Below are positions 1 to 52,848 of a DNA stretch of 64,000 bases, piece by piece. Below the pieces are notes generated by a model. It did not search any database. It was not told the origin of the DNA and saw nothing but the letters and a program-made list of their open reading frames with translations. This stretch comes from Yuukianura sp. NJ FZ-2021 (Eukaryota): positions 3,100,001-3,164,000 of the forward strand of contig CM102289.1 in the NCBI GenBank assembly GCA_046563655.1, in the 5' to 3' direction. Within the stretch, counting starts at the first letter, position 1; each line of letters begins with the position of its first letter. The position numbers were made by a program, and so were the translations under genes.

Positions 1-3000
1 TATTTATGTTAACAATGTGCTTAGAAGCTTTCACTTTCTCCGGATAAAGAAAAAATTTGAATGTTATCTTCAACAGAAAATTTTCAGACGGATTCAGCCG
101 AAAAACCTGACAAGCAAGTTTGATAAACAACAAATTTCGTTGGTAACGCTTCAGACAGGACTTGAACACCCGAAATTAAAATTTTTCTGTATTTATGTTA
201 ACAACGTGCTTAGAAGCTTTCACTTTCTCCCGATAAAGAAAAAATTTGAACGTTATCTTCAACAGAAAATTTTCACACGGATTCAGCCGAAAAACCTGAC
301 AAGCAAGTTTGATAAACAACAAATTTCGTTGGTAACGCTTCAGACAGGACTTGAACACCCGAAATTAAAATTGTTCTGTATTTGTGTTAACAACGTGCTT
401 AGAAGCTTTCACTTTCTCCCGATAAAGAAAAAATTTGAATGTTATCTTCAACAGAAAATTTTCACACGGATTCAGCCGAAAAACCTGACAAGCAAGTTTG
501 ATAAACAACAAATTTCGTTGGTAACGCTTCAGACAGGACTTGAACACCCGAAATTAAAATTTTTCTGTATTTATGTTAACAATGTGCTTAGAAGCTTTCA
601 CTTTCTCCGGATAAAGAAAAAATTTGAATGTTATCTTCAACAGAAAATTTTCAGACGGATTCAGCCGAAAAACCTGACAAGCAAGTTTGATAAACAACAA
701 ATTTCGTTGGTAACGCTTCAGACAGGACTTGAACACCCGAAATTAAAATTTTTCTGTATTTGTGTTAACAACGTGCTTAGAAGCTTTCACTTTCTCCCGA
801 TAAAGAAAAAATTTGAATGTTATCTTCAACAGAAAATTTTCACACGGATTCAGCCGAAAAACCTGACAAGCAAGTTTGATAAACAACAAATTTCGTTGGT
901 AACGCTTCAGACAGGACTTGAACACCCGAAATTAAAATTTTTCTGTATTTATGTTAACAACGTGCTTAGAAGCTTTCACTTTCTCCCGATAAAGAAAAAA
1001 TTTGAATGTTATCTTCAACAGAAAATTTTCACACGGATTCAGCCGAAAAACCTGACAAGCAAGTTTGATAAACAACAAATTTCGTTGGTAACGCTTCAGA
1101 CAGGACTTGAACACCCGAAATTAAAATTTTTCTGTATTTATGTTAACAACGTGCTTAGAAGCTTTCACTTTCTCCCGATAAAGAAAAAATTTGAACGTTA
1201 TCTTCAACAGAAAATTTTCACACGGATTCAGCCGAAAAACCTGACAAGCAAGTTTGATAAACAACAAATTTCGTTGGTAACGCTTCAGAAAGGACTTGAA
1301 CACCCGAAATTAAAATTTTTCTGAATTTGTGTTAACAACGTGCTTAGAAGCTTTCACTTTCTCCCGATAAAGAAAAAATTTGAATGTTATCTTCAACAGA
1401 AAATTTTCAGACGGATTCAGCCGAAAAACCTGACAAGCAAGTTTGATAAACAACAAATTTCGTTGGTAACGCTTCAGACAGGACTTGAACACCCGAAATT
1501 AAAATTGTTCTGTATTTGTGTTAACAACGTGCTTAGAAGCTTTCACTTTCTCCCGATAAAGAAAAAATTTGAATGTTATCTTCAACAGAAAATTTTCACA
1601 CGGATTCAGCCGAGAAACCTGACAAGCAAGTTTGATAAACAACAAATTTCGTTGGTAACGCTTCAGACAGGACTTGAACACCCGAAATTAAAATTTTTCT
1701 GTATTTATGTTAACAATGTGCTTAGAAGCTTTCACTTTCTCCGGATAAAGAAAAAATTTGAATGTTATCTTCAACAGAAAATTTTCAGACGGATTCAGCC
1801 GAAAAACCTGACAAGCAAGTTTGATAAACAACAAATTTCGTTGGTAACGCTTCAGACAGGACTTGAACACCCGAAATTAAAATTTTTCTGTATTTATGTT
1901 AACAACGTGCTTAGAAGCTTTCACTTTCTCCCGATAAAGAAAAAATTTGAACGTTATCTTCAACAGAAAATTTTCACACGGATTCAGCCGAAAAACCTGA
2001 CAAGCAAGTTTGATAAACAACAAATTTCGTTGGTAACGCTTCAGACAGGACTTGAACACCCGAAATTAAAATTGTTCTGTATTTGTGTTAACAACGTGCT
2101 TAGAAGCTTTCACTTTCTCCCGATAAAGAAAAAATTTGAATGTTATCTTCAACAGAAAATTTTCACACGGATTCAGCCGAAAAACCTGACAAGCAAGTTT
2201 GATAAACAACAAATTTCGTTGGTAACGCTTCAGACAGGACTTGAACACCCGAAATTAAAATTTTTCTGTATTTATGTTAACAATGTGCTTAGAAGCTTTC
2301 ACTTTCTCCGGATAAAGAAAAAATTTGAATGTTATCTTCAACAGAAAATTTTCAGACGGATTCAGCCGAAAAACCTGACAAGCAAGTTTGATAAACAACA
2401 AATTTCGTTGGTAACGCTTCAGACAGGACTTGAACACCCGAAATTAAAATTTTTCTGTATTTATGTTAACAATGTGCTTAGAAGCTTTCACTTTCTCCGG
2501 ATAAAGAAAAAATTTGAATGTTATCTTCAACAGAAAATTTTCAGACGGATTCAGCCGAAAAACCTGACAAGCAAGTTTGATAAACAACAAATTTCGTTGG
2601 TAACGCTTCAGACAGGACTTGAACACCCGAAATTAAAATTTTTCTGTATTTATGTTAACAACGTGCTTAGAAGCTTTCACTTTCTCCCGATAAAGAAAAA
2701 ATTTGAACGTTATCTTCAACAGAAAATTTTCACACGGATTCAGCCGAAAAACCTGACAAGCAAGTTTGATAAACAACAAATTTCGTTGGTAACGCTTCAG
2801 AAAGGACTTGAACACCCGAAATTAAATTTTTCTGTATTTGCGTTAACAACGTGCTTAGAAGCTTTCACTTTCTCCCGATAAAGAAAAAATTTGAATGTTA
2901 TCTTCAACAGAAAATTTTCACACGGATTCAGCCGAAAAACCTGACAAGCAAGTTTGATAAACAACAAATTTCGTTGGTAACGCTTCAGACAGGACTTGAA

Positions 3001-5098
3001 CACCCGAAATTAAAATTTTTCTGTATTTATGTTAACAACGTGCTTAGAAGCTTTCACTTTCTCCCGATAAAGAAAAAATTTGAACGTTATCTTCAACAGA
3101 AAATTTTCACACGGATTCAGCCGAAAAACCTGACAAGCAAGTTTGATAAACAACAAATTTCGTTGGTAACGCTTCAGAAAGGACTTGAACACCCGAAATT
3201 AAATTTTTCTGTATTTGCGTTAACAACGTGCTTAGAAGCTTTCACTTTCTCCCGATAAAGAAAAAATTTGAATGTTATCTTCAACAGAAAATTTTCAGAC
3301 GGATTCAGCCGAAAAACCTGACAAGCAAGTTTGATAAACAACAAATTTCGTTGGTAACGCTTCAGACAGGACTTGAACACCCGAAATTAAAATTGTTCTG
3401 TATTTGTGTTAACAACGTGCTTAGAAGCTTTCACTTTCTCCCGATAAAGAAAAAATTTGAATGTTATCTTCAACAGAAAATTTTCACACGGATTCAGCCG
3501 AAAAACCTGACAAGCAAGTTTGATAAACAACAAATTTCGTTGGTAACGCTTCAGACAGGACTTGAACACCCGAAATTAAAATTTTTCTGTATTTATGTTA
3601 ACAATGTGCTTAGAAGCTTTCACTTTCTCCGGATAAAGAAAAAATTTGAATGTTATCTTCAACAGAAAATTTTCAGACGGATTCAGCCGAAAAACCTGAC
3701 AAGCAAGTTTGATAAACAACAAATTTCGTTGGTAACGCTTCAGACAGGACTTGAACACCCGAAATTAAAATTTTTCTGTATTTGTGTTAACAACGTGCTT
3801 AGAAGCTTTCACTTTCTCCCGATAAAGAAAAAATTTGAATGTTATCTTCAACAGAAAATTTTCACACGGATTCAGCCGAAAAACCTGACAAGCAAGTTTG
3901 ATAAACAACAAATTTCGTTGGTAACGCTTCAGACAGGACTTGAACACCCGAAATTAAAATTTTTCTGTATTTATGTTAACAATGTGCTTAGAAGCTTTCA
4001 CTTTCTCCGGATAAAGAAAAAATTTGAATGTTATCTTCAACAGAAAATTTTCAGACGGATTCAGCCGAAAAACCTGACAAGCGAGTTTGATAAACAACAA
4101 ATTTCGTTGGTAACGCTTCAGACAGGACTTGAACACCCGAAATTAAAATTTTTCTGTATTTATGTTAACAACGTGCTTAGAAGCTTTCACTTTCTCCTGA
4201 TAAAGAAAAAATTTGAATGTTATCTTCAACAGAAAATTTTCAGACGGATTCAGCCGAAAAACCTGACAAGCAAGTTTGATAAACAACAAATTTCGTTGGT
4301 AACGCTTCAGACAGGACTTGAACACCCGAAATTAAAATTTTTCTGTATTTATGTTAACAACGTGCTTAGAAGCTTTCACTTTCTCCCGATAAAGAAAAAA
4401 TTTGAACGTTATCTTCAACAGAAAATTTTCACACGGATTCAGCCGAAAAACCTGACAAGCAAGTTTGATAAACAACAAATTTCGTTGGTAACGCTTCAGA
4501 AAGGACTTGAACACCCGAAATTAAATTTTTCTGTATTTGCGTTAACAACGTGCTTAGAAGCTTTCACTTTCTCCCGATAAAGAAAAAATTTGAATGTTAT
4601 CTTCAACAGAAAATTTTCACACGGATTCAGCCGAAAAACCTGACAAGCAAGTTTGATAAACAACAAATTTCGTTGGTAACGCTTCAGAAAGGACTTGAAC
4701 ACCCGAAATTAAATTTTTCTGTATTTGCGTTAACAACGTGCTTAGAAGCTTTCACTTTCTCCCGATAAAGAAAAAATTTGAATGTTATCTTCAACAGAAA
4801 ATTTTCACACGGATTCAGCCGAAAAACCTGACAAGCAAGTTTGATAAACAACAAATTTCGTTGGTAACGCTTCAGATAGGACTTGAACACCCGAAATTTT
4901 TCTGAATTTGTGTTAACAACGTGCTTAGAAGCTTTCACTTTCTCCCGATAAAGAAAAAATTTGAATGTTATCTTCAACAGAAAATTTTCACACGGATTCA
5001 GCCGAAAAACCTGACAAGCAAGTTTGATAAACAACAAATTTCGTTGGTAACGCTTCGGAAAGGACTTGAACACCCGAAATTAAAATTGTTCTGTATTT
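1..5098. repeat. 189-bp tandem satellite array, left part (~27 monomers, runs off the window edge)
   Basis: The monomer (…gttaacaacgtgcttagaagctttcac…gacttgaacacccgaaattaaaa…) recurs every 189 bp, with occasional 188- and 183-bp variants. The ORF-track periodicity (176, 365, 554, 743…) confirms the period. Each monomer has one HindIII and one HpaI site. Confidence 0.98.
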
Positions 5099-5369
5099 TT
5101 TTTTTTTTTTTTTTGATTCGTTTATTTATATTCTTTGATCCCCTTTGCGTTACATGTTATTAAGACCCCCACTAATGGTTTTACATCTTAATAACCTATT
5201 CCTTAATTTTATCTAATATTAAAGTTAAAATTACTTATAGTTATAAATTTAAAATTACACACGAAAATTCAGTTTGTTGACTATTCCTATTTAATTCCTA
5301 ATTATGATTAATTTTAGGCACTTCACTTACTTAACTTAAACTAGTACTTAACTTAACTTATAGCCTAAC

Positions 5370-8204
5370 TTAACGTAAACTTAATTCATGTGACTGCTTC
5401 TCTAGTAGTGCTTTCTTCAATTTTATTTTAAAACTTGAGTAGGTCCCAGCTTTCTTAATGGTATCATCTAAATTATTCCATAACATAAGTGACTTAGAGT
5501 GAAACGTAGAGATGCCATACTTTCCCTGACTCGTAACAACAAATTTACTCTTTGCTGATGATGTTGGGTATCTATGCATTTCTGTAATTGGTATGTAATA
5601 CGATTCCAAAGCTTGAATTTGCTTACCAGTTACCAACTTATACGTAAGACAGAGGACTTTGAACTCATACAAAAATTTCGGAAAAAGCCATTTTAGAGAG
5701 TCCGTTATCTCCTCTGAAATGGTTTCAAACTTTCTTTTACCAGTTACCAACCTTCCCATCCCTCTAATTACTCTCTCCACTTTCTTTTTATTTTTGATTG
5801 TTGTCTCTCCCCACAGAACTATCATGTATTGTAAAACAGAATATACAGCAGCTTCGACTATTACTTTCTTTGATTTCAAAGAGAAATATTCTTTCACACT
5901 AAAAATTTTGCTTAAAACTGCGAAACAGTTTTTTACCACATTGTCCACTTGTATGTTCCACTTAAAATCAGGCTCTAGGATTAATCCTAAGCACTTTATA
6001 GTTTCACTCACAGCAATTTCAATTTCACCAACTTTGATTACGAAACTTCCAAATCTTTCTCGTTGGATTTTTGACCCAAATACTAAGATTTTGGTCTTCT
6101 CTTTATTTAAAATCAAAACATTTGTTTGCAACCATTCAGAAATTCTTTCCATTTCGAAATTAATATTTTCGATAAGATTTTCCTTTTGCTCCCAATCTCC
6201 TACAAAGAGTAAATTGGTATCGTCTACAAAAATCTGAGGTTCAGCATGTTTTAATATTTTGACAAGGTCGTTAATATAAAAAGTGAAAAATATTGGTCCA
6301 AGAACACTTCCTTGTATAAGTCCAGTCAGGTTCTCATTAATCTTTGATCTCCTATTATTGATCTCAACAAATTGATTCCTTTCATTGAAATAATTTCGTA
6401 TCCAAAAATCAGATATCTGAAAGAATTTTTGTATTTTTTCCAAGAACTTTTCCCGATGAACTGTTGGGAATGCGTTTTTTAGATCAATACTGACCAAAAC
6501 GCATGCCTTTCCTTTGTCCATATATTTTTTAATTTTGTCTACTGTCATGATTAGAGCATGTTCAGTAGAGTGGTGTTTACGGCACCCAAATTGATTCTCT
6601 GTAAGTACTTTTTGCTTGTTAACGTGCTCCAGGACTTTATTAGCATATATTTTTTCCAATAAAATCAGAAGAAAGTGAGAAATTCCAATTGGTCGAAAAT
6701 CTTTAAAAGCTTTGGCGTCTTTAACTTTTGGTATAGGACAAATCCTTGTAGTTTTCAGTAATTTAGGAACTACGCCTGTTTCAAAGCTTGTATTGCAGAA
6801 ACTTGTTAGTGCATCCAAAAAACTAGGACAGTTGATCAGCACATTAATCATTCTTTTACTTATTTGCAATTCTTCCACTTGCGACTTTCTATTTCGCATT
6901 CTTTTCCACGCAAATTTAACTTCCTTCGTTGTCACCTCCTTGACAAAAAACAATTGACTGTCCTCTGGTGGTCTAACCGCTACTTTCGTAGACACAGTTA
7001 AATATGGATTTACGTTTTCAGGGAAAGCATTTTTTATGTAAAAGTCGTTAAGTTGATCCACATCGAAGTTGACTTCCTTGTTTAAGGCATGTCTTTGTTT
7101 TAATTGAAAATTGAATTCATTCTTTAGAACATTCCATATGTTGCTTTTTTCGATTTTGAGTTTTACTCTTTCGCAAACTTGGCTTTTTATCTTCATTTTA
7201 ACAAAGTTTTTATGTTCTCTTAACTGATTCTTCAGTGAAAGTACTTTAGTTGATCTGTAGTTTTTATACAATTCTCTGCCTTTGCATATTAATTCAAGAA
7301 TCTCATTGGTTGGTTTTGCAGCTTTAGAGCTTCTTCCCAATTTAATTCTCCTTTTTAATGGAGTCACTTGATCGAAAATGTTTGTCGTGTCTTTAATTAA
7401 AGCATTCAATACTTCATCAACATTGGTTAATTCAGTACCAAAGGTAGTTTGAGCAACAATTTCATTTAACTTCATCAAGTCTAAGTCTTTAAAATCTCTG
7501 TAGAGTTCGTACTCTTTACTTTTTTTTTCTGATCCAACTGTAAAAGAAACCTTCGAAAGGTTGTGATCAGAAATGCCATAATCACTAACCTTGACTTTAT
7601 AATCAGTAACAGAATTTGTGATAATTACGTCAAGAATTGCACTTTCTCTTGTTGGATGACTAACCAACTGTTTCAATTCCATTCGGTTAACCAGGTTAAC
7701 CAATTGTTTTGTTTGTGAGCAATCTTGCAATAAGTCACGATTCAAGTCACCAATAACCCAAAAAGTTTTGTTTGTCATTTTAAGTTGAAATAGAATTTCT
7801 TCTAAATTGTGCATGTCATTTTTGTTGTTCTTGTTCGGAATGTACACAGCACATACCAAAAAACTGTTCGTGAAGTTGATTTGAAAATTCATACATAAAA
7901 ACTCTATTGCAGACGGCTGCATGAAATTATTTTTGCTTAGTTCAAAGTCCCATGTTTTAAAACTATTTTTAAAAAGAATCCCTACTCCTCCTCCGGCACT
8001 ATCCCTATCTTTTCTTGAAAGTAAGTAACCCCTGGGAACTAGACATTGCGATTTCTTCCTTAACCATGTTTCTGTTGTGACAAGTATATCTATCTCTTCA
8101 GCATGTAAAATAGCCTCTACATGTTTCATTTTGTTATACATAGCCCTTACGTTCTTGTTTCCTATGTTAATATTCTTGATTCTGCTGTCTTTGCTATCAT
8201 GTAG
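5370..8204 (-). CDS. LINE ORF2: APE endonuclease + reverse transcriptase (first ATG at 8141, frame open to 8204)
   Basis: APE motifs NVRAM, TETWL, GDLN, LDVI and SDH. RT motifs FRPI, DLKNAF, QGSVLGP and FVDD. CR1/L2-like C-terminus LWNNL…FKIKLK. No stops or frameshifts. Confidence 0.95.
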   Translation of the reverse strand, partial: LHDSKDSRIKNINIGNKNVRAMYNKMKHVEAILHAEEIDILVTTETWLRKKSQCLVPRGYLLSRKDRDSAGGGVGILFKNSFKTWDFELSKNNFMQPSAIEFLCMNFQINFTNSFLVCAVYIPNKNNKNDMHNLEEILFQLKMTNKTFWVIGDLNRDLLQDCSQTKQLVNLVNRMELKQLVSHPTRESAILDVIITNSVTDYKVKVSDYGISDHNLSKVSFTVGSEKKSKEYELYRDFKDLDLMKLNEIVAQTTFGTELTNVDEVLNALIKDTTNIFDQVTPLKRRIKLGRSSKAAKPTNEILELICKGRELYKNYRSTKVLSLKNQLREHKNFVKMKIKSQVCERVKLKIEKSNIWNVLKNEFNFQLKQRHALNKEVNFDVDQLNDFYIKNAFPENVNPYLTVSTKVAVRPPEDSQLFFVKEVTTKEVKFAWKRMRNRKSQVEELQISKRMINVLINCPSFLDALTSFCNTSFETGVVPKLLKTTRICPIPKVKDAKAFKDFRPIGISHFLLILLEKIYANKVLEHVNKQKVLTENQFGCRKHHSTEHALIMTVDKIKKYMDKGKACVLVSIDLKNAFPTVHREKFLEKIQKFFQISDFWIRNYFNERNQFVEINNRRSKINENLTGLIQGSVLGPIFFTFYINDLVKILKHAEPQIFVDDTNLLFVGDWEQKENLIENINFEMERISEWLQTNVLILNKEKTKILVFGSKIQRERFGSFVIKVGEIEIAVSETIKCLGLILEPDFKWNIQVDNVVKNCFAVLSKIFSVKEYFSLKSKKVIVEAAVYSVLQYMIVLWGETTIKNKKKVERVIRGMGRLVTGKRKFETISEEITDSLKWLFPKFLYEFKVLCLTYKLVTGKQIQALESYYIPITEMHRYPTSSAKSKFVVTSQGKYGISTFHSKSLMLWNNLDDTIKKAGTYSSFKIKLKKALLEKQSHELSLR

Positions 8205-9086
8205 TCAGATTTCCATGACCTCGGATGACCTCCTAGCCCGTGCTACTGCCCCTGCTTGGAGATTTGATGCTGTCGCTGCTGCATAACCTCTCCTTTCCGT
8301 TGTAGACTCCGTTATTTCCCGTTCCAATTGAATCAATGCTCCATCAGTTGACATAGTAAAAGGAACTCCATTGATGATGACCTTATCTCCTGCTAATCTT
8401 GCATTTTTCCCGCTTGCTCTAGCCTTTGCTGCCTCTGCACGTAGAAATTTTCGTCTAGCCAAAGTGTTCGGTGGCAAATCTTCATTCAAGTAGATACTGC
8501 ATTTTTTTTGCTGTAGAATTGTTCTCTTCTGAAGTATTTTGACACGATCAGTTTCGGTGAAGAGTTTGAACTTAATTGGGCGATTTTTATCTCTCAATTT
8601 TTTTCCCAAACGAAAACACTGATCAATGTTTACCTCCTCCTCAATTTCAATGACTTCCCGGAAGAACTTTTGTAGAACAAGGTTCAATTCCAGTTCTGAT
8701 TCTTCATTTTCTTCTTTTAGCCCAATCACAATCAAATTAAGCTTTCTGGCTTGAATGTCAATCAGTTCCACACTTCTTTGTAATGCTGACACATTTTTCT
8801 CAGTAACTGATTCTTTAACTTCAATTGCTTTCACACGATCCTTCGTTTCACTTAGATCTTTGCTAAGTTTGTCCACAGTTTGTGTTAAGGTGGTGACCTG
8901 CTGCGTAATTCGATCAACTCCATCTTGAACTATTTGCGCGATACTGTTAAGTGTGAGATTTTGCACTGGATTGAAGTCCGGTACTTGTTGAGTATTTGCT
9001 CTTTTCAATTGAGCCGGTTGATCTTCGTCTTCATCTTCAGTGTCTCTTCCTCTCTTTGCCTTAGAACCTTTCTTATGAGCCGGCAT
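8205..9086 (-). CDS. LINE ORF1, coiled-coil + RRM-type nucleic-acid-binding protein (293 aa)
   Basis: A heptad-rich segment is followed by NLIVIGL…RLGK…RPI…IYLNEDL, as in CR1/L2/L1-type ORF1 proteins. It lies directly upstream of ORF2. Confidence 0.9.
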   Translation of the reverse strand: MPAHKKGSKAKRGRDTEDEDEDQPAQLKRANTQQVPDFNPVQNLTLNSIAQIVQDGVDRITQQVTTLTQTVDKLSKDLSETKDRVKAIEVKESVTEKNVSALQRSVELIDIQARKLNLIVIGLKEENEESELELNLVLQKFFREVIEIEEEVNIDQCFRLGKKLRDKNRPIKFKLFTETDRVKILQKRTILQQKKCSIYLNEDLPPNTLARRKFLRAEAAKARASGKNARLAGDKVIINGVPFTMSTDGALIQLEREITESTTERRGYAAATASNLQAGAVARARRSSEVMEI

Positions 9087-9112
9087 CTTAGTCTATATGA
9101 GTGACTGACAGT

Positions 9113-9147
9113 ACGTGTGCACGACTTGAAGGCTAATAGGAGACTGA
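9113..9147 (-). promoter_or_regulatory. LINE internal Pol II promoter: Inr (TCAGTC) + DPE (ACACGT at +28..+33)
   Basis: The minus strand reads T-CAGTCT at the element 5' end (A+1 = 9145). ACACGT at 9118-9113 is exactly +28 to +33 and fits the DPE range DSWYVY. Confidence 0.65.
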
Positions 9148-10690
9148 TTTGCGTTAACAACGTGCTTAGAAGCTTTCACTTTCTCCCGATAAAGAAAAAA
9201 TTTGAATGTTATCTTCAACAGAAAATTTTCACACGGATTCAGCCGAAAAACCTGACAAGCAAGTTTGATAAACAACAAATTTCGTTGGTAACGCTTCAGA
9301 CAGGACTTGTACACCCGAAATTAAAATTTTTCTGTATTTATGTTAACAATGTGCTTAGAAGCTTTCACTTTCTCCGGATAAAAAAAATTTGAATGTTATC
9401 TTCAACAGAAAATTTTCAGACGGATTCAGCCGAAAAACCTGACAAGCAAGTTTGATAAACAACAAATTTCGTTGGTAACGCTTCAGACAGGACTTGAACA
9501 CCCGAAATTAAAATTTTTCTGTATTTATGTTAACAACGTGCTTAGAAGCTTTCACTTTCTCCCGATAAAGAAAAAATTTGAATGTTATCTTCAACAGAAA
9601 ATTTTCACACGGATTCAGCCGAAAAACCTGACAAGCAAGTTTGATAAACAACAAATTTCGTTGGTAACGCTTCAGAAAGGACTTGAACACCCGAAATTAA
9701 ATTTTTCTGTATTTGCGTTAACAACGTGCTTAGAAGCTTTCACTTTCTCCCGATAAAGAAAAAATTTGAATGTTATCTTCAACAGAAAATTTTCACACGG
9801 ATTCAGCCGAAAAACCTGACAAGCAAGTTTGATAAACAACAAATTTCGTTGGTAACGCTTCAGAAAGGACTTGAACACCCGAAATTAAATTTTTCTGTAT
9901 TTGCGTTAACAACGTGCTTAGAAGCTTTCACTTTCTCCCGATAAAGAAAAAATTTGAATGTTATCTTCAACAGAAAATTTTCACACGGATTCAGCCGAAA
10001 AACCTGACAAGCAAGTTTGATAAACAACAAATTTCGTTGGTAACGCTTCAGATAGGACTTAAACACCCGAAATTTTTCTGAATTTGTGTTAACAACGTGC
10101 TTAGAAGCTTTCACTTTCTCCCGATAAAGAAAAAATTTGAATGTTATCTTCAACAGAAAATTTTCACACGGATTCAGCCGAAAAACCTGACAAGCAAGTT
10201 TGATAAACAACAAATTTCGTTGGTAACGCTTCAGAAAGGACTTGAACACCCGAAATTAAAATTGTTCTGTATTTGCGTTAACAACGTGCTTAGAAGCTTT
10301 CACTTTCTCCCGATAAAGAAAAAATTTGAATGTTATCTTCAACAGAAAATTTTCACACGGATTCAGCCGAAAAACCTGACAAGCAAGTTTGATAAACAAC
10401 AAATTTCGTTGGTAACGCTTCAGACAGGACTTGTACACCCGAAATTAAAATTTTTCTGTATTTATGTTAACAATGTGCTTAGAAGCTTTCACTTTCTCCG
10501 GATAAAAAAAAAATTTGAATGTTATCTTCAACAGAAAATTTTCAGACGGATTCAGCCGAAAAACCTGACAAGCAAGTTCGATAAAAAAAAAACAAATTTC
10601 GTTGGTAGCGCTTAAGAGAGGACTTGGACACCCGAATTTTTGTTGATAACGCTTCAGGCAGAACGTGAACACTCGAAATTCTAAATTATT
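9147..10690. repeat. 189-bp satellite array, right part (~8 monomers, last one degenerate)
   Basis: Same monomer as the left part. It decays from ~10580 into unique sequence by ~10690. Confidence 0.95.
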
Positions 10691-10916: not shown

Positions 10917-12555
10917 ATGTCGGCTTTAACTTTCAAAATTGTAGCCGAATGTTCAGTTACCAAAGCCCGTGCTAGTCTAATGACGTTACCGCACAGTATA
11001 GTAGAAACTCCATGCTTTATGCCGGTCGGAACTCAGGTAAATTATCTTATTAAACTTTTGCCTGGGTTATATACGTTAAATTAACGATTACTTATAGGGC
11101 ACGATGAAGGGGATTCTTCCAGACCAATTGGAGTCACTGAACTGTAACATAATGCTCGGCAATACATATCATCTTGGGAACCGTCCTGTAAGGAACTGTG
11201 TAATCCTAAAACCTAAAATACGAGTTAGAGAGTATTTTTTTCTTTGCTAATGTGGTAGGGTCCAAAATTGCTGACTGCCGCTGGAGGATTACACAACTTT
11301 ATGAATTGGAAACGCAGTTTGTTGACAGATTCAGGTGGCTTTCAAATGGTCTCTCTACTAAAGTTGGCCGAAATAACAGAAGAAGGAGTCAAGTTCAAAA
11401 GTCCTTACGATGGTTCAGAGTGTATGTTAACACCAGAAGAATCTATTCAAATCCAAAATAAAATCGGAGCAGACATAATAATGCAGCTTGACGATGTTGT
11501 ATCGTCAACGACTACTGGAGAACGGGTTGTTGAAGCGATGCACAGGTTAGCTACCGGCATTATTCATTCATTTTAAGATCGGGTATTATTAACTCTCAGT
11601 GAATCAGATATATGTTTCTTAATGTAGAACAATTCGTTGGCTGGATAGGTGTATCGCTGCCCACCAACATCCTGATCGTCAGAACCTTTTTCCAATCGTT
11701 CAAGGTGGCCTGGACCCAAAATTACGGAAAGAATGCGCACTGGAACTTATAAAACGAAACACCCCGGGTTTTGCTATTGGGGGTTTAAGGTACTTTTCTT
11801 GGCACATTTACAATGTTCTTCCTGTGAAGTACTTGTCCTTGCATTAATTGTTTTTTACGGTTATATTACAATTCACAGTGGAGGAGAAGCGAAAGAAGAC
11901 TTTTGGAAAATGGTATCGATTTCGACGGATATCTTACCAAAAGACAAACCACGGTATCTAATGGGAGTCGGATTTAGCGAAGATCTAGTTGTTTGTTCTG
12001 CTCTTGGATGTGATATGTACGACTGTGTTTATCCTACCAGAACCGCAGTAAACTTAAATTATGATTATCAATTTAACTTAACCATGAACTTCTCTAAACA
12101 ATTTCTTTAACTTAGTATTTTTTTCCCTTTAGAGATTCGGAACAGCGCTTTTGTTCACCGGGCAAATCTCATTGAAACAGAAACAATTTGCTCAAGACTA
12201 TTCACCACTAGACGAAACCTGCGATTGCTCTACGTGTCGTACCTATACAAGGGCCTACATCCATGCAATTGCTACGCATGAAACAGTGGCTTGTCACTTG
12301 ATAAGCATTCACAACTTGGCATTTCAGGTGAGCGTGCCCCGCGTACAACTTCACTGAAAAGTTAGTCCGAATGTTCAAATCTATATACCGTGTTTTCATT
12401 TTTAGATGCGCTTGATGACTAGAATTCGCGACAGTATTAAAGAAAATCGGTTTCCTGATTTTGTTCGCGAATTTATGCTTGGACTTTATCCAGAAAGAAA
12501 TTATCCAGAGTGGTCGACGGCTGCTCTAAACTCAGTGGGAATTCAATTAGCGTAA
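10917..12555 (+). CDS. QTRT1: Queuine tRNA-ribosyltransferase catalytic subunit (multi-exon)
   Basis: Spliced exons give [19 protein letters not shown]…[15 protein letters not shown]…GNTYHLG…[12 protein letters not shown]…IVQGG…PRYLMGVG…[12 protein letters not shown]…CDCSTC…HNL. GT-AG introns. TAA at 12553-12555. Confidence 0.95.
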
Positions 12556-12695: not shown

Positions 12696-13927
12696 TCAGT
12701 TCCAATTTTCATAAGGTTCAGTGGAGTTCGACTCTCTGAAAAATCCAAGTTTGTTGGGGCATTCCCTTATTGTTACAGTTCGAAAGTTAACTGTGACATC
12801 GGTGATTACGACATGGTCTGCAACGGGTTTTCTCTCCAGCCAAAATTCAGCAGGAATTGGATTTTCTTCTGGCGTAAAGGCATTGGTGTCTAATCGAACT
12901 GCCTCTTCACACAGAATCGCTTCTGAGTCTACTGGTCTCATGTTGTCTTCTTTTGAACTCGACGCCTTACGTTTCCGTTTCAGTTTTTTCTGTTTTGGAA
13001 CCTTCATGTTTTCTTGTGACTCGTGCCCATCTACGACCATTTCAGACTTGTCGCTGCTTGGAAACAAAGAGGATGTCACATTACTCTTTGAAATCAAATT
13101 ACTCTATTTCTATAGAGAGTTGAAGTCATGTGACTCCATAAGGTAATTCGATTTGGTCTTATTTTTTGTTCAAAAAAATATTGCAATTCCTTACGTAAGT
13201 TCCGAATTGGCTCTTGAATATTCGTTTTTATTAGAAGCAGGAAGTTCTGTTTGACCACTACCGTCATCATCTTCATCAGGGCATTCTTGTGGTTTTTCTT
13301 TTTTCACACTCGGCTGCTACAGTTAAATTAAAAAAAAACATAAGATTTTTTAACCTTAGGTTAAAGTTAATCTAACATAGTCTATAGTTTAGCGCTAATT
13401 CCCGTTACCTTTTTGTTTTTGGGTTTCGGCCCTCTTTTTGCTCCAGCAGGTTTCGGAATACTCGGTTTCAATTCCTGCTCGAAAGCTTGAATCAATCGTT
13501 CATCTAAAATGTTTTCTTGTGGTTCCCAAGTATTATACCTGATCATACAAAAATTCAAATTTTCAACGTCAATTTGAATCATTTGCTATTTTTCTTCTGA
13601 ATTTCAGTTTCCTAACTCACGCTGACGTCCATCCCTTCCATTTCACAAAGTACTCGATTTTGCCCTAGAGCGAAAAATTCTATTTAAAGAAGTTTCTACT
13701 AATTGCATTTTGTTTATTAAATTATGCATATCTTAGTTAATTAGATCAAGCCATGCAAATCTTTCCACCTTTTTTGTTTTCTTTTTATCCAAGATTCGTT
13801 CTGCTGCGAAAACGCTTTTTCCCAGTTGCGTCAGTTCCATCCGATCTTCTGGATTCGGCTAAAAAATGGTAATACACATAACGTTTAAGAAATTTGTGAA
13901 AAACTGATTTCTTTTTAAACTCACCAT
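12696..13927 (-). CDS. Pc: Polycomb-type chromobox protein (Pc/CBX family, multi-exon)
   Basis: The chromodomain VFAAERIL…[12 protein letters not shown]…[16 protein letters not shown] is split over exons, followed by KRGPKPK and a C-terminal Pc-box ([18 protein letters not shown]…GFF). The start is either ATG 13840 or an ATG-only first coding exon at 13927 followed by GTGAGT that splices in frame ([10 protein letters not shown]). Confidence 0.88.
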
Positions 13928-17659: not shown

Positions 17660-20600
17660 ATGGCTAAGTACAAGAGAGCTGATTTGGCAGAAGAAGAAGA
17701 CTCTGTCCATGTCAACGATGGAGACAACAACCACCTCAAAACACACGTCCTACCTATCCAGCCACTCGGAATATGGAAGGCTAGAACTAGTCTAGAGAAA
17801 GTCCTATTCACTTTCTCCTTCGTCGCATTCCTAGCCTTGTCAGTCTCTTTCGTCTGCATGCTGAAAGGATACAGAGGCTGGCATAATCTTCTACACAGTG
17901 CGCATGACGGTGAGGTTTACTTGATACTGGGACACTTTTGGACGGTTACTTGTTAACGGCATACCGATGGACAACTGTAACGAACACGAAACTCGAAACG
18001 ACACGACAAAAACTGCAGAAAAGCAGAGTTCGGTTCGTCAGTAACGGTCCATACAATTGCCGGTTCATGATTTACCGTCCACTTGTGTCCCGTTACGGTG
18101 TTGCTAAGATGAGGAATTACTATTTACGTCTATTTCTTAAACTTTTTTGCAGGTCAAGTTTGTTTGACTCCAACATGTGTAAAAATTGCGTCAACCATGT
18201 TGACATCGATGGATCTGACTGCAGATCCTTGCGAAGACTTTTACCAAGTAAAACTAACAAAAACAAAACAAGAATTGTATTATAATTATATAGTTTTATA
18301 TTGATATAAAAAATGAACTATAACGTAGCCTTGGCTATCGCCAATTGTACATTCATGTGAAATTTTGCGAATTTAAATTTATACAATACGCCTTACATTT
18401 TCATAATTGTAATACCTAAATATTATGTTAGAAATGTTTTTGTATTTTAGCCAAATTGTCTACTTTTCAGTACGCCTGCGGCGGTTGGGTTCGTTCTAAT
18501 CCAATTCCAGAGGGAAAATCCAATTGGGGCACGTTCCAGAAACTGTGGCAGGAGAACCAACTTGTTATTAAGCAAGCCCTGGGTAAGGACAAACAAAACT
18601 AAATAACTTTCATCATGAACGAGACAAAAGGCGCCTTCATTTAATTACATCTTCATTCCAAGTCTTAACCATCTCCTATTGTTTCCCTCTTCCGCTCCAA
18701 ATAATCTCAATGGAAAGCCCCAGGAATTAAATTAGTCTTTCTTTCTAAAGAAAATTTTCTACGTCAAAGATGCTTGCTTCTTTTTTTTTGCTTAAAAAGA
18801 CACATTTTTTCTAACAGGATTTTTGCTTTAACTACAACCTAACGCAATCCAAAAAATTAATTTGACATAGAGTTACAATTAACGTTTTAAAAAAAATGGT
18901 GTCTTTTTTATAGAAAAAGAAGGCAATCACAGCACGGGGGAGCAGAAGGCAAAGTGGTACTACCACTCCTGCCTTGACAAAAACGAAATTCAAGAAAAAC
19001 TTGGGAGTGAACCTATGATTCAGTTCCTAGCAAAAATAGGAGGTTGGTCAATTACCCCTGGAACTGGCTATTCCCTGGACAAATTTGATTTACAGGATAA
19101 GCTAAATTTACTACACAACGAATACAACATGGGGAGTCTTTTTTCTTGGGCGGTTGGAGAAGATGACCGGAATTCAACAAAACATGTCATTCAAGTAAAG
19201 AAAATTGGCAAATTTTTAGAATTTGGAGACAATTTTTAAAATTTTGGAATTTGATTTTTTTTAACGCTTTGTTTATTTCCAGATTGACCAAGGTGGACTG
19301 ACGTTGCCTACACGAGATTACTACCTCAACTCAACTCATGCGCATGTGATGGAGGCTTATCTAAAATACATGACACGCGTTGCTATGCTACTAGGAGCCA
19401 ACAACGACACTGCCACAATTGAAGCAATCAGAAATGTGATTGAATTTGAAAAAGAGCTTGCCAATATTACTGTGCCGTCGGAGGAAAGACGAGACGACGA
19501 AAAATTGTACCACGCCAAGAATATTTCGGAGCTCCAACTACTGGCACCAGTGGTAAAAACTAAAACTATGTACTGTAACTGACATCGTCAAAAAATGTCT
19601 TTAGAGCAATCCTCGGCAATATAAATTGAGGTTCATATTTTTTTTTATTTTTGAAAATTTTTGAGAATTTTTTGACGGCTCCGCTAGAATGCCATACTAA
19701 AACAAGCTTTACTCATGAAAATAATGAACCAATTTAAAATCCAATTCACACTTGTCACAATTTGTTCTCCTTAGATCTCCTGGAAGCAGTATTTTACAAA
19801 CGCCTTTAGCAAAGTGGCTCACGAGATCAAAGATGAGCATGTTGTTGTTATTTACGCGCCTGAGTACCTTGAGAAGATGTCACACTTGATTGAGACCAAG
19901 CTGAACACAACAGAAGGGAAAACTGTAGTGAACGACTACCTCGTTTGGCACATGGTGAAAACACTTACTAGTTGTCTCTCCAAAGCATTTCGTGAAGCGG
20001 AGAAAATTCTACGAAAAGCAATTTTGGGATCTGACGGTAGCTCATAAAAACTCTAAAATTTGAGTCATTTTTGAAATAGAGTATCATCAAAATTATACAT
20101 CGTTTGAAAAACATGATCTGTACAGGAACTGAAGAGACCTGGAGGACATGCGTCACGGATGTCAATAACAATCTTGGTTTTGCTGTCGGCGCCATGTTTA
20201 TTCGAGAAACTTTTCACAGTGACTCGAAGCCTTTGGCACAAGAAATGATCGAAGAAATTCGAACGGCGTTTCAACGGAACTTATGGAACTTAAAATGGAT
20301 GGACGACGAAACGCGAAATCTCGCAAGGGAAAAAGCAGGAGCAATTACCGGTATATAAAAAAATTGAAATTTATAAAAACAATTATTGCTGAGAAATGTT
20401 TGTTTACAGATATGATCGGATACCCGGATTTCATATTAATTCCGGATCAACTTGACAAAAAATATACCAAACTTGTTATTAATGAAACCGACTACTTTGG
20501 AAACAACATTCGGGTCAGCCAGTTCAGTTTACTTCAGAACTTGGAAAAATTATCTCAGCCGGTGAACCGTACGAAGTGGGGCATGACTCCACCTACTGTA

Positions 20601-21383
20601 AATGCTTATTACACACCCACCAGTAATCAAATGGTCATTCCAGCTGGTATCCTTCAATGGCCATTCTTTGATCCGCAATTTCCGAAGAGTGTGAACTTTG
20701 GGGCCATGGGTGTGGTCATGGGCCATGAACTGACGCATGCCTTCGACGACCAAGGTTAGCGAAATTCTAACGAAACGTTACACAAATAGTTACGCCATTA
20801 CATACGTTTACCATAATTGCATAATGTGTGCGTAGGGCGGGAATATGATAAGGACGGAAATTTGAATCAATGGTGGCAGAATGATACCGTGGAGCGGTTC
20901 AAGGCACAAACGGAATGTGTAGTTAAGCAGTATTCTTCCTACAAGATCGACGGTGAAAACGTAAATGGGAATACAACGATTGGTGAAAATATTGCCGACA
21001 ATGGTGGACTGAAAGCGTCTTTCCATGCATACAAGCAGTACAGCAGTGAGTGGGACCTACCGCTTCCAGGTCTCAATTTAACTCAGGATCAAATTTTCTT
21101 TCTCTCATTTGCACAAGTAAGCTTCAAATTTCGACAATACAATACACCACGTATTACACATTAATTTGTAGCAACAATGGACATATTTGTTATCTTTTGT
21201 ACTTAGGTCTGGTGCTCGTCTAGTCTAAAAGAGACGTTAATTTTGCAGCTACAAAATGATCCCCATGTTCCCGCTCCACTTCGTGTCCGTGGTCCAGTGT
21301 CCAACTTGCCCGAATTCGCAACGACTTATCGATGTAGCGTAGGTTCCCAAATGAATCCAGTCAAAAAGTGTACTGTTTGGTGA
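17660..21383 (+). CDS. Nep3: M13 metallopeptidase, neprilysin-3/endothelin-converting-enzyme-like (multi-exon)
   Basis: N-terminal TM anchor, CLTPTC…DPCEDFYQYACGGW, VNAYY, zinc motif HELTH, ENIADNGG, and C-terminal KCTVW with TGA at 21381-21383. Family assignment is secure; the exact orthologue is less so. Confidence 0.9.
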
Positions 21384-22557
21384 TTTTTGGCAGCTAGCTG
21401 CCTTTTGCTTTCAATTCAATGTTTGTAAAAGTTCAATGTGATCATTTTGCTACAATTTGCAACCAAAACTGTTTACTATCTTATTACTTTATAAAAGCAA
21501 ACGCGAATATAAAACTTGTTTTGGTTTTAGATGTTTTTAATATCGATGTGCATCTAGACATTGAAATTCGTAAAATTGCAACAAATAACAAACACATAGA
21601 ATTGGTTATCATACTCATAAGTTTAGAAATTTTAAGTTTTCAGAAGCTTTTGTGTTTCGTGTTAAGCAGACTTTCTGCATTATTTCCAACTTAAAATTAT
21701 TACGAAAAGTATATACGATAATGATAAGTACCTGAGCGGACGTATTAGAAATGTTAAGCTATGTGTACTCGCCATTCTTTTTTTTTTAAGTTTTGAAAAT
21801 GTCGTGTTGCTAAGATTCCCAAATAAAGTCGATATTCGAATGGTTCAGCTCTCGTGTAGTAAACACTTTGAGTTTCTTTAGCAGGTTGGGTAATACCTCC
21901 TGTTTTTCCGACTTTACAAGAAAAGTGTCTTTTCATTTCAGAGCATCGCAGTCATAACAATACAGCCGAATCTTTTAAGTTTTGCATACGAATTGGTACT
22001 TAGTTTTTTTGGAGTAATACCAATTGGTACTAACTTTTTTTTTCTTTTTTTTTTGTCAACAACCGAAGTAGTACTCAACCTGTTAAAGAAAATCAACCTT
22101 TTGTTGTCAAGGAAAAAGCTTTATTTCCGGCTATGAAAAGTACCGGTTGTCGTTTTTGCCGATTCGTTTATGTAATGGCATGGACCTTTTGAGTTACCGT
22201 AAAAAAATAGTTTACGAAACGGTTCGTGGTCACTAAAAGTTTTCGAAAGTATCATGACAAAATAGTTTACGATACAGTTCACTGTAAGTTTTCAAACTGG
22301 AAATAAATTTCATATACTTTTGACCTTCAAGTTTTTTTTCCTTTTTATTTTTTCAAAATGTTTAATTTTTTAAACCTTTTAGTATTGATTGCTATTTCTG
22401 TATCAGACATGGCAACTTAATTCAATAATCCTCAACCCAACGTTGCAATCGATTTAAAAAGCTGTCCAGAAAGTTCAGCGAATCGAAGATTAGAATTTGC
22501 TCATTCAGTTTTATATGCTAACTGCTAAACGTGGCACGGTTTTATTGCTGTTCTAAA

Positions 22558-23756
22558 ATGCCTTCTCTTGCTATTGATTTTGTACAACGTTCTCTTCATA
22601 ACGCTCATCAAACATATCAAAATCCACTAAAATGGAGTTGCAAGCTCAACCAGTATATGCTAGACGATTCAAAAACGTATCGCAAGCTATCAGGTTGCGT
22701 TTTGATCACCGATATCAATGCCGTTATGTACTGCATTGGCTTAGCGCTCGTCAACAACTCGAAGAACTTAAGTCCGTTATTAACTTCACTCTTGTTGGCT
22801 TACGGGTGCATGCTAACGCATTCAACTACACTGGATTTGCATGCGATTTGGAATGCAAAACTTTGGCAACAAGCGATGAACACTCTTCTACTCACGTCCG
22901 ATGAACGTAATGCACAAATCTCAACTCACAAATTTTTACTTACTTTTTCAAAGTTTGTTTTTCAATTTTAGATTATTGTATTTTTTGCCCTGCCTCAGAA
23001 CTGAGAAGTCTTGGTCTTTTGAAGTTTGGATATTTTGGGGCTCCAGTGTTAGCAACGATTTTCTTCTTTACGTCGGCAACTGTATTTTATGAGGACATTT
23101 CGTTGTTGATTGAGAAAATACTTTCGAGTATGTTTGAATTTCCGGCAAGTGGTAAAATTACGTTTTGGCTTACTGTATGCATCTGTATATTCACTTTCCT
23201 TTATCTTGGTGTCGTTACGTTCCTAATCACAATCAAATATGTTCAGCATTTCGTTATGGCACTCACGCTAAATGACTACGGTGTATTCTGGGTGTCACTT
23301 ATCCATCCAAAGTCTGAGAAGTCAAATCTACTACTAGGAATCTAGCGTTATCGCGTCATTTTCATTTTTTCGTCAATGATGTCTGAGCTTTTGATGTTAG
23401 AGTTTGGAGTATTTATAGCCATGGCGACAGCATTTAGCTCCATTTCGTTTGCACTTTCCATTCGGGTAGGAGTTTCACTTTTTGGTTTAGCAGTGCTAGC
23501 TACAGGGGCATCAGTGTTGGTTGCAATGAACCTCTTTCTGGAAACTTCTGCAAAAGCTCACTATTTGTCACAACGATATCTTTCTCAGTTGAAAACTTTG
23601 GTGGGAACAAGGAAACTGGAAGCCTTGGCAGCAAGGTCACTGCGACCTGCCTACGTGAAATGCGGAACACTGAACTACGTTGATCGTCATATGATTATGA
23701 CTGTAAATGCAAATGTTGTTGACTACATGGTAAATTTACTTCTCGTTCTTATGTAA
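22558..23756 (+). pseudogene. Multi-TM chemoreceptor-like (GR-like) gene copy 1 with one in-frame TAG
   Basis: Two exons (intron 22907-22971) join in frame. It is paralogous to 25164-26368 along its length. AAG of copy 2 is TAG here (23343-23345), with no other disablement seen. Confidence 0.7.
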
Positions 23757-25163
23757 ATCACCGTGAACGAAAATGTAATGGAGTAAAGCCAGTTTATTTA
23801 TTATTTTTAATTTTTAGTGCTGATAAGGCTAGCTAGTGGTTACTTATCTTTTCTCAGTCGGAATTGAAGAATGTCATTAGATCGATTTTTGTTGACCAAA
23901 ATTAACTGTTAATTATTAGAGCATATATAGTTTAAAATTAGTGGAAAACACATTACGATAGTAAGGATGTGGACTGCTGGATTATTTTTTTGTCTTGTAC
24001 TAGGTATAAATTCTTATTAATTTTAGCATAAAGCAGTGTCTACAAAATTTTAATTTTTTCTCCTAGAAAATTGGTAAGAAATTAATGTTGTTTTTGCCTG
24101 GAAAGCTTAACCTTTAAGGACAGAGTTTGGTGTGTTGTACAAGTATTATTGAATTTTGTTGAAGCGGACTTGTTAAAAACTGCCAATAATTTAAACGAGT
24201 CAAATATAGTGCAAAGACAAAGAGTTATACTTACAGAAAGAAAAAAAATCAATATATAAATGGTGTGCCATAAGTAAAGAGCTTTTTTTTTACCACACCT
24301 TTCTTTTTATGTAAAAGGTTTTATGTTTACTACATACAGAAAAAATACATTTACATACATATACAAGAATGTGTTTCAGAGGTAATTTTGTAAATTGCGG
24401 CTCTCAGAGAAGTGTTAAATTTCAACTCTACAACGTTCTTGATATGCTAATGAATAAACTAAACGTATCTCTTAAAACAGCGTCTCGGAATGCAATTTAT
24501 TTTGCTGGACTATTGAAACGTAGAAAGATAGAACAGTTCAAACGCTGAGGTTGTACAATTAGGTGCAAGGGAAATATGTATAGAAAAACCACTTTTCGAT
24601 TTCAATGTTTTCAACGTAAGTTCAGCTGAACATATTTGTTTCCTTGTACAAAAGTAATTTCGGATTTGGTCAATTAGCTTACTTCAAATTTCTTCAGAGT
24701 ATTTGCTATCCAAATAATGTCACACATTTTCGCTGTTTGGTTCAAACCAAATTTAACTGGAGAAAATCGCACGTTTAAATTTAACCGTAGTTTAACCGGC
24801 GTAGAATACAAGAATTTTGATACCTTGCATGCCAAAATTAGATGACGCATAATTAAGTTGATTGAGTTTAAAGGTGGAACTAGTTTTCATTAAACTTCGT
24901 TTAATTTTAAGCTGGAATGGCCGAACCGGGCATAAAAGTTTAAAAGTTTTTCTTTTTCTTGAATTTTTCATGTGTTTACTATTTAAAACCTTTTATTGCT
25001 ATAGTAGACAAGGCAACTTTAATTCGATAATCCACAACACACCTTTTTAATCGATTGAATAAGTTTTCCAGCACATTCTACGAACAGAAGCATATTAGAA
25101 TCCCTTCAGTTTTAGTATATGGTAGCTACACCAACGCTTACTCGCTTCTATTGCCGTTACAAC

Positions 25164-52724: not shown

Positions 52725-52848
52725 AACCCTTAAGCGGTAGATCGGTCAGCAACAAGAGATGTCAGAGTTCAAATCCAAACGATGATTTGTCCACTACGCG
52801 CGTAAATTCAAATTAAAGTCAAAGTTAAGGTCAAAGTAAATACAAAAG

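Follow-up and report, generated by a model that had tools for sequence, protein, structure and literature searches.

An intact LINE with two open reading frames

We analysed a 64,000-nucleotide (nt) stretch of Yuukianura sp. NJ FZ-2021 (contig CM102289.1, positions 3,100,001 to 3,164,000; hereafter the window, numbered from its first letter), in which a poly(A) long interspersed nuclear element (LINE) of ~4 kb lies on the minus strand at ~9146-5096 and sits within a 189-bp satellite. The element is structurally intact and recently amplified, it comes from an animal genome, and the second of the two open reading frames that it carries (ORF1 and ORF2) has no start codon of its own. Self-BLAST of the window revealed no second copy of the LINE. 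Below we characterize the two proteins and the junction between their frames, and weigh the ways in which ORF2 could be translated; feature coordinates are collected in Table 1.

ORF1 occupies a stop-to-stop frame (9092..8205) whose product ends in ...SSEVMEI, followed by the TGA at 8207-8205. Pfam returned nothing above the cut-off for this protein, with sub-threshold coiled-coil matches only, and a PDB search with the single ORF1 sequence was not significant (E=0.4), a profile being required. An exhaustive HMMER search with a query spanning the ORF1-ORF2 junction yielded 150 listed proteins, which BLAST sorted into those matching the ORF1 half only (28), the ORF2 half only (117) and both halves (5). 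Alignment of 19 ORF1 sequences revealed a coiled coil, a conserved RKLNLI-VGL core, a block of the form YINEDLPP...RR..LR.E..KA...G....L.GD.L, and a variable low-complexity tail. In the PDB, the resulting 19-sequence profile matches human LINE-1 ORF1p best (2ykp/2yko, E=1.5e-6), and it also matches the chain 2w7a, which holds only the RNA recognition motif (RRM; E=0.0037). The ORF1 product (ORF1p) is therefore of the L1 type, namely type II, with coiled coil, RRM and C-terminal domain.

Pfam identified a reverse transcriptase (RT) domain, RVT_1 (E=6.6e-27), and Exo_endo_phos (E=1e-5) in the ORF2 product (ORF2p); Exo_endo_phos_2 is carried by its relatives, and the ORF2 profile matches human L1 ORF2p (E=1.5e-36) as well as R2 proteins. 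An AlphaFold model of ORF2 residues 1-240 reached a predicted local distance difference test (pLDDT) value of 88.8 and a predicted template modelling (pTM) score of 0.86. Foldseek placed the LINE-1 endonuclease first among the structures matching this model (8sp7, E=5.8e-11, template modelling (TM) score 0.70), with 1vyb next; here too, a PDB search with the single endonuclease sequence was not significant and a profile was required. ORF2 thus shows features of LINEs of the apurinic/apyrimidinic endonuclease (APE) type: an N-terminal exonuclease-endonuclease-phosphatase fold, with the RT downstream of the endonuclease. In a search of 5.8 billion proteins, the closest ORF2 protein among the matches listed is 38% identical and the other listed matches are 20-29% identical; the C-terminus presumably resembles L2-like proteins such as P0120. 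Three distant ORF2 relatives of 1166-1338 residues (P0018, P0019 and P0015) carry PHD (and C1) domains before the endonuclease-RT within a single predicted protein.

The ORF2 frame opens at the ORF1 stop and reaches its first ATG inside the endonuclease

The first-pass annotation of this stretch, made by a model from the letters and a list of open reading frames, had placed ORF1 and ORF2 in one frame across a single TGA (8207-8205), with 21 sense codons leading to an ATG at 8141. The list and our own reading of the minus strand agree on this layout. There is no spacer: the ORF2 frame opens at the codon right after the TGA, in the frame of ORF1, and begins LHDSKDSRIKNINIGNKNVRA-M, so that its first in-frame ATG is codon 22 (8141-8139). 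From the ORF1 ATG (9086) to the end of ORF2, with the TGA read through, the chain would comprise 1238 residues, in line with the ~1240 estimated at first pass, and all 1237 sense codons are intact.

The segment ahead of Met22 belongs to the endonuclease. Within the stop-to-stop ORF2, the Pfam Exo_endo_phos match begins at residue 11 and thus ahead of Met22, and Asn18 is invariant in 12/12 sequences aligned. In the profile of these 12 sequences, Asn18 pairs with Asn14 of human L1 ORF2p and Glu45 with Glu43; we take Asn14 and Glu43 to be metal-binding catalytic residues of the L1 endonuclease. In the AlphaFold model, the first core beta strand is formed by ORF2 residues 10-18, and residues 1-6, with pLDDT <50, are predicted to be disordered. 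Strand beta-1 and Asn18 precede Met22, and a protein started at the ATG would therefore be without a conserved endonuclease element, as the first-pass annotation had argued from a motif. The variable low-complexity tails of ORF1 and the disordered residues after the stop would together fit a flexible linker between the two proteins, judging from the alignment and the model.

A further ATG lies out of frame 4 bases past the stop in the window, and the mini-ORF that it opens would trap scanning or restarting ribosomal subunits in the wrong frame. The same out-of-frame ATG is found in one of the two diverged relatives described below (L001; 2/3 elements), and the other (L002) has ATC at this place.

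The in-frame TGA-CTN junction is conserved in diverged relatives

One scan of metagenome contigs gave two DNA relatives of the element, L001 and L002, as its only finds; no relatives were found among viral contigs scanned with the ORF2 and ORF1 alignments, nor among genome contigs in two scans. The pairwise ORF2 identities among the window, L001 and L002 are 37.8%, 36.0% and 46.3%. In L002, the ORF1 tail ends at a TGA (473-475), followed by CTC CAT, and ORF2 runs on in the same frame with no ATG before its HHNVRSY motif. The upstream frame of L002 is 77% identical, from residue 28 on, to the C-terminal part of the ORF1 homologue P0106. Bases 1-112 of this contig are unlike ORF1 family members, the remainder of the upstream frame being alike, and the L002 copy is probably 5'-truncated within ORF1. 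The L001 contig starts 9 bases upstream of its TGA (10-12) in the ORF2 frame; the three upstream codons are open, CTG TAT follows the stop, and HQNIRSY is reached without a preceding ATG. In the public gene call for this contig (P0001), the start lies at an internal GTG.

Aligning the junctions revealed the consensus nnC-TGA-CTN-YAT in 3/3 elements. An in-frame ORF2, the missing spacer and the TGA-CTN stop context are thus common to three DNA junctions at 36-46% ORF2 identity, and an ATG before the Asn is present in 0/3. In the Leu codon the three elements differ at the third base (A, C and G), so silent sites had time to change, yet TGA and CT stayed. CTN makes up 41-57% of the Leu codons in the genes of the three elements. 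The stop of ORF2 is TAA at both visible ends (2/2), and TGA to TAA is a single transition that preserves a stop. No near-cognate start codon between the stop and the Asn is conserved across the three elements: the non-AUG candidates are ATC alone in L002, and ATC, ATT, ATA, AAG and AGG in the window. The layout is beyond chance, as an in-frame TGA-CTN without ATG also occurs in 2/2 relatives read as DNA. The two features singled out at first pass as worth following, the constancy of frame and context at the junction and the chance of a nonsense mutation private to this copy, are both addressed by these sequences, mostly in favour of readthrough: TGA-CTN stands in frame in the window, L001 and L002, and the stop is not private.

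A fourth lineage is visible as proteins. According to BLAST, five proteins extend across the junction (P0076, P0114, P0117, P0138 and P0143), of which P0076 was aligned in full; P0114 as read has no ORF1-like part, and P0117, P0138 and P0143 were viewed over the 45 residues before the Asn motif. P0076, which is 29% identical over the aligned part, passes from an ORF1 tail straight into the endonuclease, ...SDELIDVD-W-L-SASTVRIGHLNVNAL, and its W aligns exactly with the window TGA, with Leu next. Three ORF1 proteins of this lineage, P0215, P0216 and P0217 (from contigs of 1297, 1239 and 32693 bases), end in ...FIDVD, ...SIDID and ...STHID, right before the position of the P0076 W. A stop therefore stands there in 3/4 proteins of the lineage, in the endonuclease frame and followed by Leu. 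The W of P0076 may reflect a copy in which TGA became TGG, or a gene prediction that used a code reading TGA as W.

Table 1. Coordinates of the LINE, its junction and the flanking satellite in the window
Feature	Position	Strand	Basis and remarks
ORF1, 293 codons and TGA stop	8205..9086	-	List of open reading frames; coiled coil, RRM-like core, C-terminal domain like that of L1 ORF1p, variable tail
ORF1 stop UGA, proposed readthrough site	8205..8207	-	Sequence; TGA at the equivalent place in L002 (473-475) and L001 (10-12)
Leu codon CUA adjoining the stop, which completes the context UGA-CUA	8202..8204	-	CTC in L002, CTG in L001; Leu after W in P0076
21 sense codons from the stop to the first in-frame ATG, holding strand beta-1 and Asn18 (codon 8153-8151)	8142..8204	-	List of open reading frames, Pfam, alignment, model
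Out-of-frame ATG 4 bases past the stop, with a 12-codon mini-ORF to TAG 8164-8162	8162..8200	-	Sequence reading
ORF2, 944 codons from the stop on, ending in TAA 5372-5370	5370..8204	-	List of open reading frames; Pfam
APE-type endonuclease domain, ORF2 residues 10-223	7536..8177	-	AlphaFold model, Foldseek
Reverse transcriptase domain, ORF2 residues 495-742	5979..6722	-	Pfam RVT_1, profile match
5' untranslated region of the LINE	9087..9146	-	60-nt leader; satellite array resumes at 9147, first ATG of the ORF1 frame at 9086
3' untranslated region of the LINE	5115..5369	-	Sequence reading
Poly(A) tail	5096..5114	-	19 A on the element strand; the final bases may stem from the satellite or from a short duplication (AAAT) of the target site
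189-bp satellite array, 27 copies, insertion target	1..5098	.	Repeat analysis
189-bp satellite on the other flank of the LINE, 7.9 copies	9147..10636	.	Repeat analysis

Copies of the element are numerous and many are nearly identical

We aligned sequencing contigs from 4 runs (2 studies, two organisms) to positions 7600-8800. The runs contributed 47, 48, 15 and 24 contig pieces (134 in total), 80-100% alike, and those at least 99% alike number 14/47 (run X1), 17/48 (run X2), 2/15 and 3/24. The family is therefore multi-copy and recently active. Among 32 of the 134 pieces, at least 7 extend across the stop by 31 bases or more in both directions and carry 6 to 40 differences. Insertions or deletions are entered only at 7765, 7879, 7881, 7910, 7912, 8434 and 8722, with none between 7913 and 8433, so no aligned piece shifts the ORF2 frame relative to the stop.

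Most host-copy contigs differ from the window at 8156 (A>C on the element strand, Lys17 to Gln) and at 8189 (G>A, Asp6 to Asn), which makes the window copy a slightly diverged family member and not the master sequence. One contig of run X4 carries a 4-base insertion at 8434, in ORF1, and represents a frameshifted dead copy. Two variants show an 8-base deletion near 7910-7912, inside the endonuclease.

The stop context matches a documented readthrough signal

UGA followed by CU is a core element of efficient readthrough in fungi and human cells, and readthrough rises further if A comes third after the stop (UGA CUA) (Stiebler et al. 2014, PMC4207609). A 2026 review places UGACUA among the type II readthrough motifs, with a high basal activity and a conditional need for downstream structure (PMC13517186). 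The leakiness that the first-pass annotation had ascribed to UGA-CUA is thus documented, and the published UGA-CU motif is present in all three elements, as TGA-CTA in the window, TGA-CTC in L002 and TGA-CTG in L001.

Translation of ORF2 may proceed by readthrough of the ORF1 stop

The reading that we favour, at a probability of about 60%, is programmed readthrough of the UGA, which would yield a minor ORF1p-ORF2p fusion. Ribosomes would start at the ORF1 AUG (9086) and make ORF1p, a coiled-coil/RRM protein like L1 ORF1p, and most of them would terminate at the ORF1 stop and release it. In the weak context C-UGA-CUA, a small share, perhaps a few percent, would decode UGA with a near-cognate tRNA and stay in frame, giving a 1238-residue chain of ORF1p, linker, endonuclease and RT. 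Such readthrough would fix a low ratio of ORF2 to ORF1 products, like that of gag-pol in some retroviruses; more speculatively, being part of the fusion may hold the enzyme on its own coding RNA, coated with ORF1p. Readthrough would explain together the shared frame, the zero-length spacer, the retained UGA, the retained CU (with a conserved Leu in an otherwise variable, disordered stretch) and the missing ATG. The first-pass proposal of readthrough, fusion and a gag-pol-like ratio is strengthened in its sequence part, as the in-frame TGA-CTN is conserved, no near-cognate start is, and the context is a leaky one; the readthrough event, the fusion and the ratio are what we infer from these observations.

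Several points weigh against readthrough. Its support comes from sequence and predicted structure, and we know of no experiment in which any LINE works as an ORF1p-ORF2p fusion. The sample is small, with three DNA junctions, one of which (L001) shows 9 bases upstream of the TGA, and among the host copies 40 of 178 variant rows were covered, none of them at 8202-8207, too few to fix the junction codon of other copies. P0076 has a sense residue, W, at the junction site. Outside the subfamily, the nearest ORF2 proteins (P0051, P0054, P0058 and P0059) start with an M that lies 3-12 residues ahead of the Asn, and neighbouring subfamilies may, from these starts, use an ORF2 start of their own. Folding of 126-nt windows from the three elements, starting 8-10 nt upstream of the stop and reaching ~115 nt past it, revealed no stimulatory downstream structure (z of -0.84, +0.81 and +1.13 against shuffles). 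L002 reads UGA-CUC, with C as the third base, and the review lists UGACUG and UGACUU besides UGACUA in alphaviruses, with UGACUC not among them (PMC13517186). Finally, L1 ORF2 is translatable after its ATG is changed to another sense codon (PMC1965478), and tolerance of ATG loss means that the missing ATG alone does not force readthrough.

This last point leads to the rival that we take most seriously, although we consider it unlikely: termination followed by AUG-independent restart, in which all ribosomes would release ORF1p at the UGA and some 40S subunits would stay on the RNA and use a non-AUG start just downstream, giving a free ORF2p. Termination-reinitiation has been described for L1 and SART1 (PMC5972666), free ORF2p is the form known from the LINEs studied, and the absence of an ATG before the Asn in 3/3 elements fits restart as well; in L001 the stop is followed directly by CTG, and 10 codons farther on comes an in-frame GTG. 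Restart, however, needs neither a shared frame nor a zero-length spacer, yet both are kept. It accounts only for the missing ATG and leaves unexplained why UGA is retained over TAA and why CU follows it. The lack of a near-cognate codon conserved in position speaks against it, as does the out-of-frame ATG 4 bases past the stop in the window and L001, which would capture restarting subunits. A restart AUG of the SART1 or calicivirus type, overlapping or adjoining the stop in the downstream frame, occurs in 0/3 elements, and the nearby ATGs are all out of frame. Splicing across the stop was tried and rejected: the sole GT...AG pair visible by eye spans 26 nt, which is very short and not a multiple of three. 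Of the two escapes raised at first pass, splicing has thus no plausible pair visible by eye and non-AUG initiation no conserved near-cognate codon, with AUG-independent restart staying as the rival to readthrough.

A non-functional state, in which the copies are dead, the stop arose by decay of an ancestral single ORF, or the ORF2 ATG was lost, has been largely refuted and appears very improbable. It could draw on the continuous P0076 with W at the site, on some related proteins encoded by one long ORF that adds N-terminal domains (PHD in P0018 and P0019), and on the minority letters at several sites of the window copy. Against this, the stop holds the same position in 3/3 DNA junctions at 36-46% identity and in 3/4 proteins of the fourth lineage, both window ORFs are intact over their 1237 sense codons, and the many pieces at least 99% alike in X1 and X2 point to recent amplification. 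A search for fused ORF1-endonuclease forms of at least 680 residues, word-based and hence a weak negative, gave 14 matches, all with the endonuclease half only. Still more remote is the idea that UGA is decoded as selenocysteine or as a sense codon of a variant nuclear code of the host. UGA does serve as the selenocysteine codon and encodes Trp or Cys in some variant codes, but no other in-frame TGA occurs in the 3147 codons of the three elements, where Trp is TGG in 33/33 cases. Rfam, searched at E<=1 over 5000-9250 on both strands, revealed no selenocysteine insertion sequence (SECIS) or recoding element, giving a weak match resembling a small nucleolar RNA on the other strand only, and ordinary animal gene fragments (TGT, Peptidase_M13 and a CBX C-terminal motif) are present in the host.

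Building on programmed readthrough, a bolder reading is that this animal LINE lineage gave up separate ORF2 initiation altogether: the endonuclease-RT would be made only as a fusion, by structure-independent UGA-CU readthrough, and be built into the ORF1p coat through the coiled coil. We hold this tentatively, as a possibility somewhat short of even.

Comparison with known recoding and reinitiation systems

How ORF2 is translated from a bicistronic LINE RNA is a long-standing question, for which the tested answers are L1 reinitiation, SART1 UAAUG coupling and 2A skipping. The human L1 and SART1 elements share with the window LINE a bicistronic RNA, and our element has an L1-like ORF1p and an endonuclease and RT homologous to those of L1 ORF2p. 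L1 differs in its 63-nt spacer and its own ORF2 AUG, and SART1 in its UAAUG overlap with downstream structure (PMC5972666, PMC1965478), whereas in the window LINE ORF1 and ORF2 share a frame, spacer and AUG are both absent, and the stop stands in a leaky context. Some APE-type LINEs carry N-terminal 2A ribosome-skipping peptides (Odon et al. 2013, PMC3708506). As in our reading, recoding there brings upstream in-frame ribosomes into the endonuclease-RT, by skipping of a peptide bond at NPGP in contrast to the decoding of a stop. The 1238-residue reading of the window contains neither NPG nor the 2A motif D(V/I)ExNPGP. A 2A-like D(V/I)ExNPGP is found in 6/150 listed relatives (P0104, P0120, P0167, P0173, P0178 and P0180), 27-104 residues from the N-terminus and upstream of the endonuclease; neighbouring LINE families therefore skip where the window family has a stop codon.

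Outside the LINEs, the same UGA-C-U signal, with A as the best third base and a minor extended product, operates in MDH1, LDHB and fungal enzymes (PMC4207609) and at the alphavirus nsP3/nsP4 junction (PMC13517186). The cellular and viral UGA-CU(A) signal can work without long-range structure. The extension in those cases serves as a targeting signal or is a polymerase released by subsequent cleavage, whereas here it would be a whole endonuclease-RT, and no protease is encoded. A structural protein and an enzyme in one frame, separated by a single stop and made at a low enzyme ratio, are also known from the gammaretroviruses (UAG-GGA; PMC13517186) and from the gag-UGA-pol of Candida Tca2 (PMC3956500). 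These are elements with long terminal repeats (LTRs) and a protease, and the gammaretroviral case needs a downstream pseudoknot; no downstream structure was found here.

The first-pass annotation could not say whether readthrough had already been described for this clade, and the idea is less new than thought: readthrough of an in-frame ORF1 stop was proposed earlier for the Paramecium LINE 'Group 3' (Guerin et al. 2017, PMC5405496). The resemblance lies in an in-frame ORF1 stop whose readthrough was deduced from sequence, as here; the differences lie in the ciliate clade, an ORF1 that ends in a zinc finger, and 3' tri- to penta-nucleotide repeats versus the poly(A) of our element. In ciliates UGA is generally the only stop, so the choice of UGA is uninformative there. 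For some Arabidopsis ATLN/Ta11 LINEs, elements of the plant L1 clade, Noma et al. in 2000 reportedly described ORF1 and ORF2 as one frame interrupted by a single stop, for which suppression is said to have been suggested; the stop is reportedly an amber UAG rather than a UGA. A full-text literature search, with subscription papers and Repbase reports outside its coverage, turned up the Paramecium proposal only, and no account of an in-frame UGA-CU junction conserved in an animal LINE. The idea of LINE stop readthrough is already in print, and the conserved UGA-CU junction in an animal LINE is a new variation and not categorically new.

No other route to a complete endonuclease is visible in the window family than reading through the conserved UGA-CU. 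An active fusion would show that ORF1p and ORF2p can function within a single chain and would suggest a direct physical basis of cis-preference. Should the fusion-only lineage prove true, cis-preference and ORF1:ORF2 dosage would be hard-wired, unlike in every LINE studied at the bench. In genome annotation, a pipeline requiring ORF2 to begin with ATG will cut such genes short or place their start wrongly, as in the public call for L001.

Insertion site and neighbouring features

The LINE cleanly interrupts the satellite, whose copies within both 189-bp arrays match at 95-97%; any target-site duplication is at most ~4 bp (AAAT) and is indistinguishable from the tail. The stop-free frames of the satellite produce long spurious ORFs on both strands.

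Elsewhere in the window, two tandem paralogous sets of open frames encoding hydrophobic proteins lie at 22522-23756 and 25116-26368 (+), with no Pfam match for the one tested; they may represent a duplicated membrane-protein gene or a repeat. Exon-like fragments encode a queuine tRNA-ribosyltransferase (TGT; 11676-12110 (+), E=9.6e-22), a CBX-family C-terminal motif (12696-13103 (-), E=2.2e-12) and Peptidase_M13 (20223-20759 (+), E=5.9e-22). A 582-codon open frame at 52840-54588 (+) matches Pfam Retrotrans_gag (E=7.8e-8) and corresponds to an LTR-retrotransposon gag or a gag-derived gene. Given the TGT, Peptidase_M13 and CBX fragments and the LTR-type gag, the host is therefore an animal nuclear genome.

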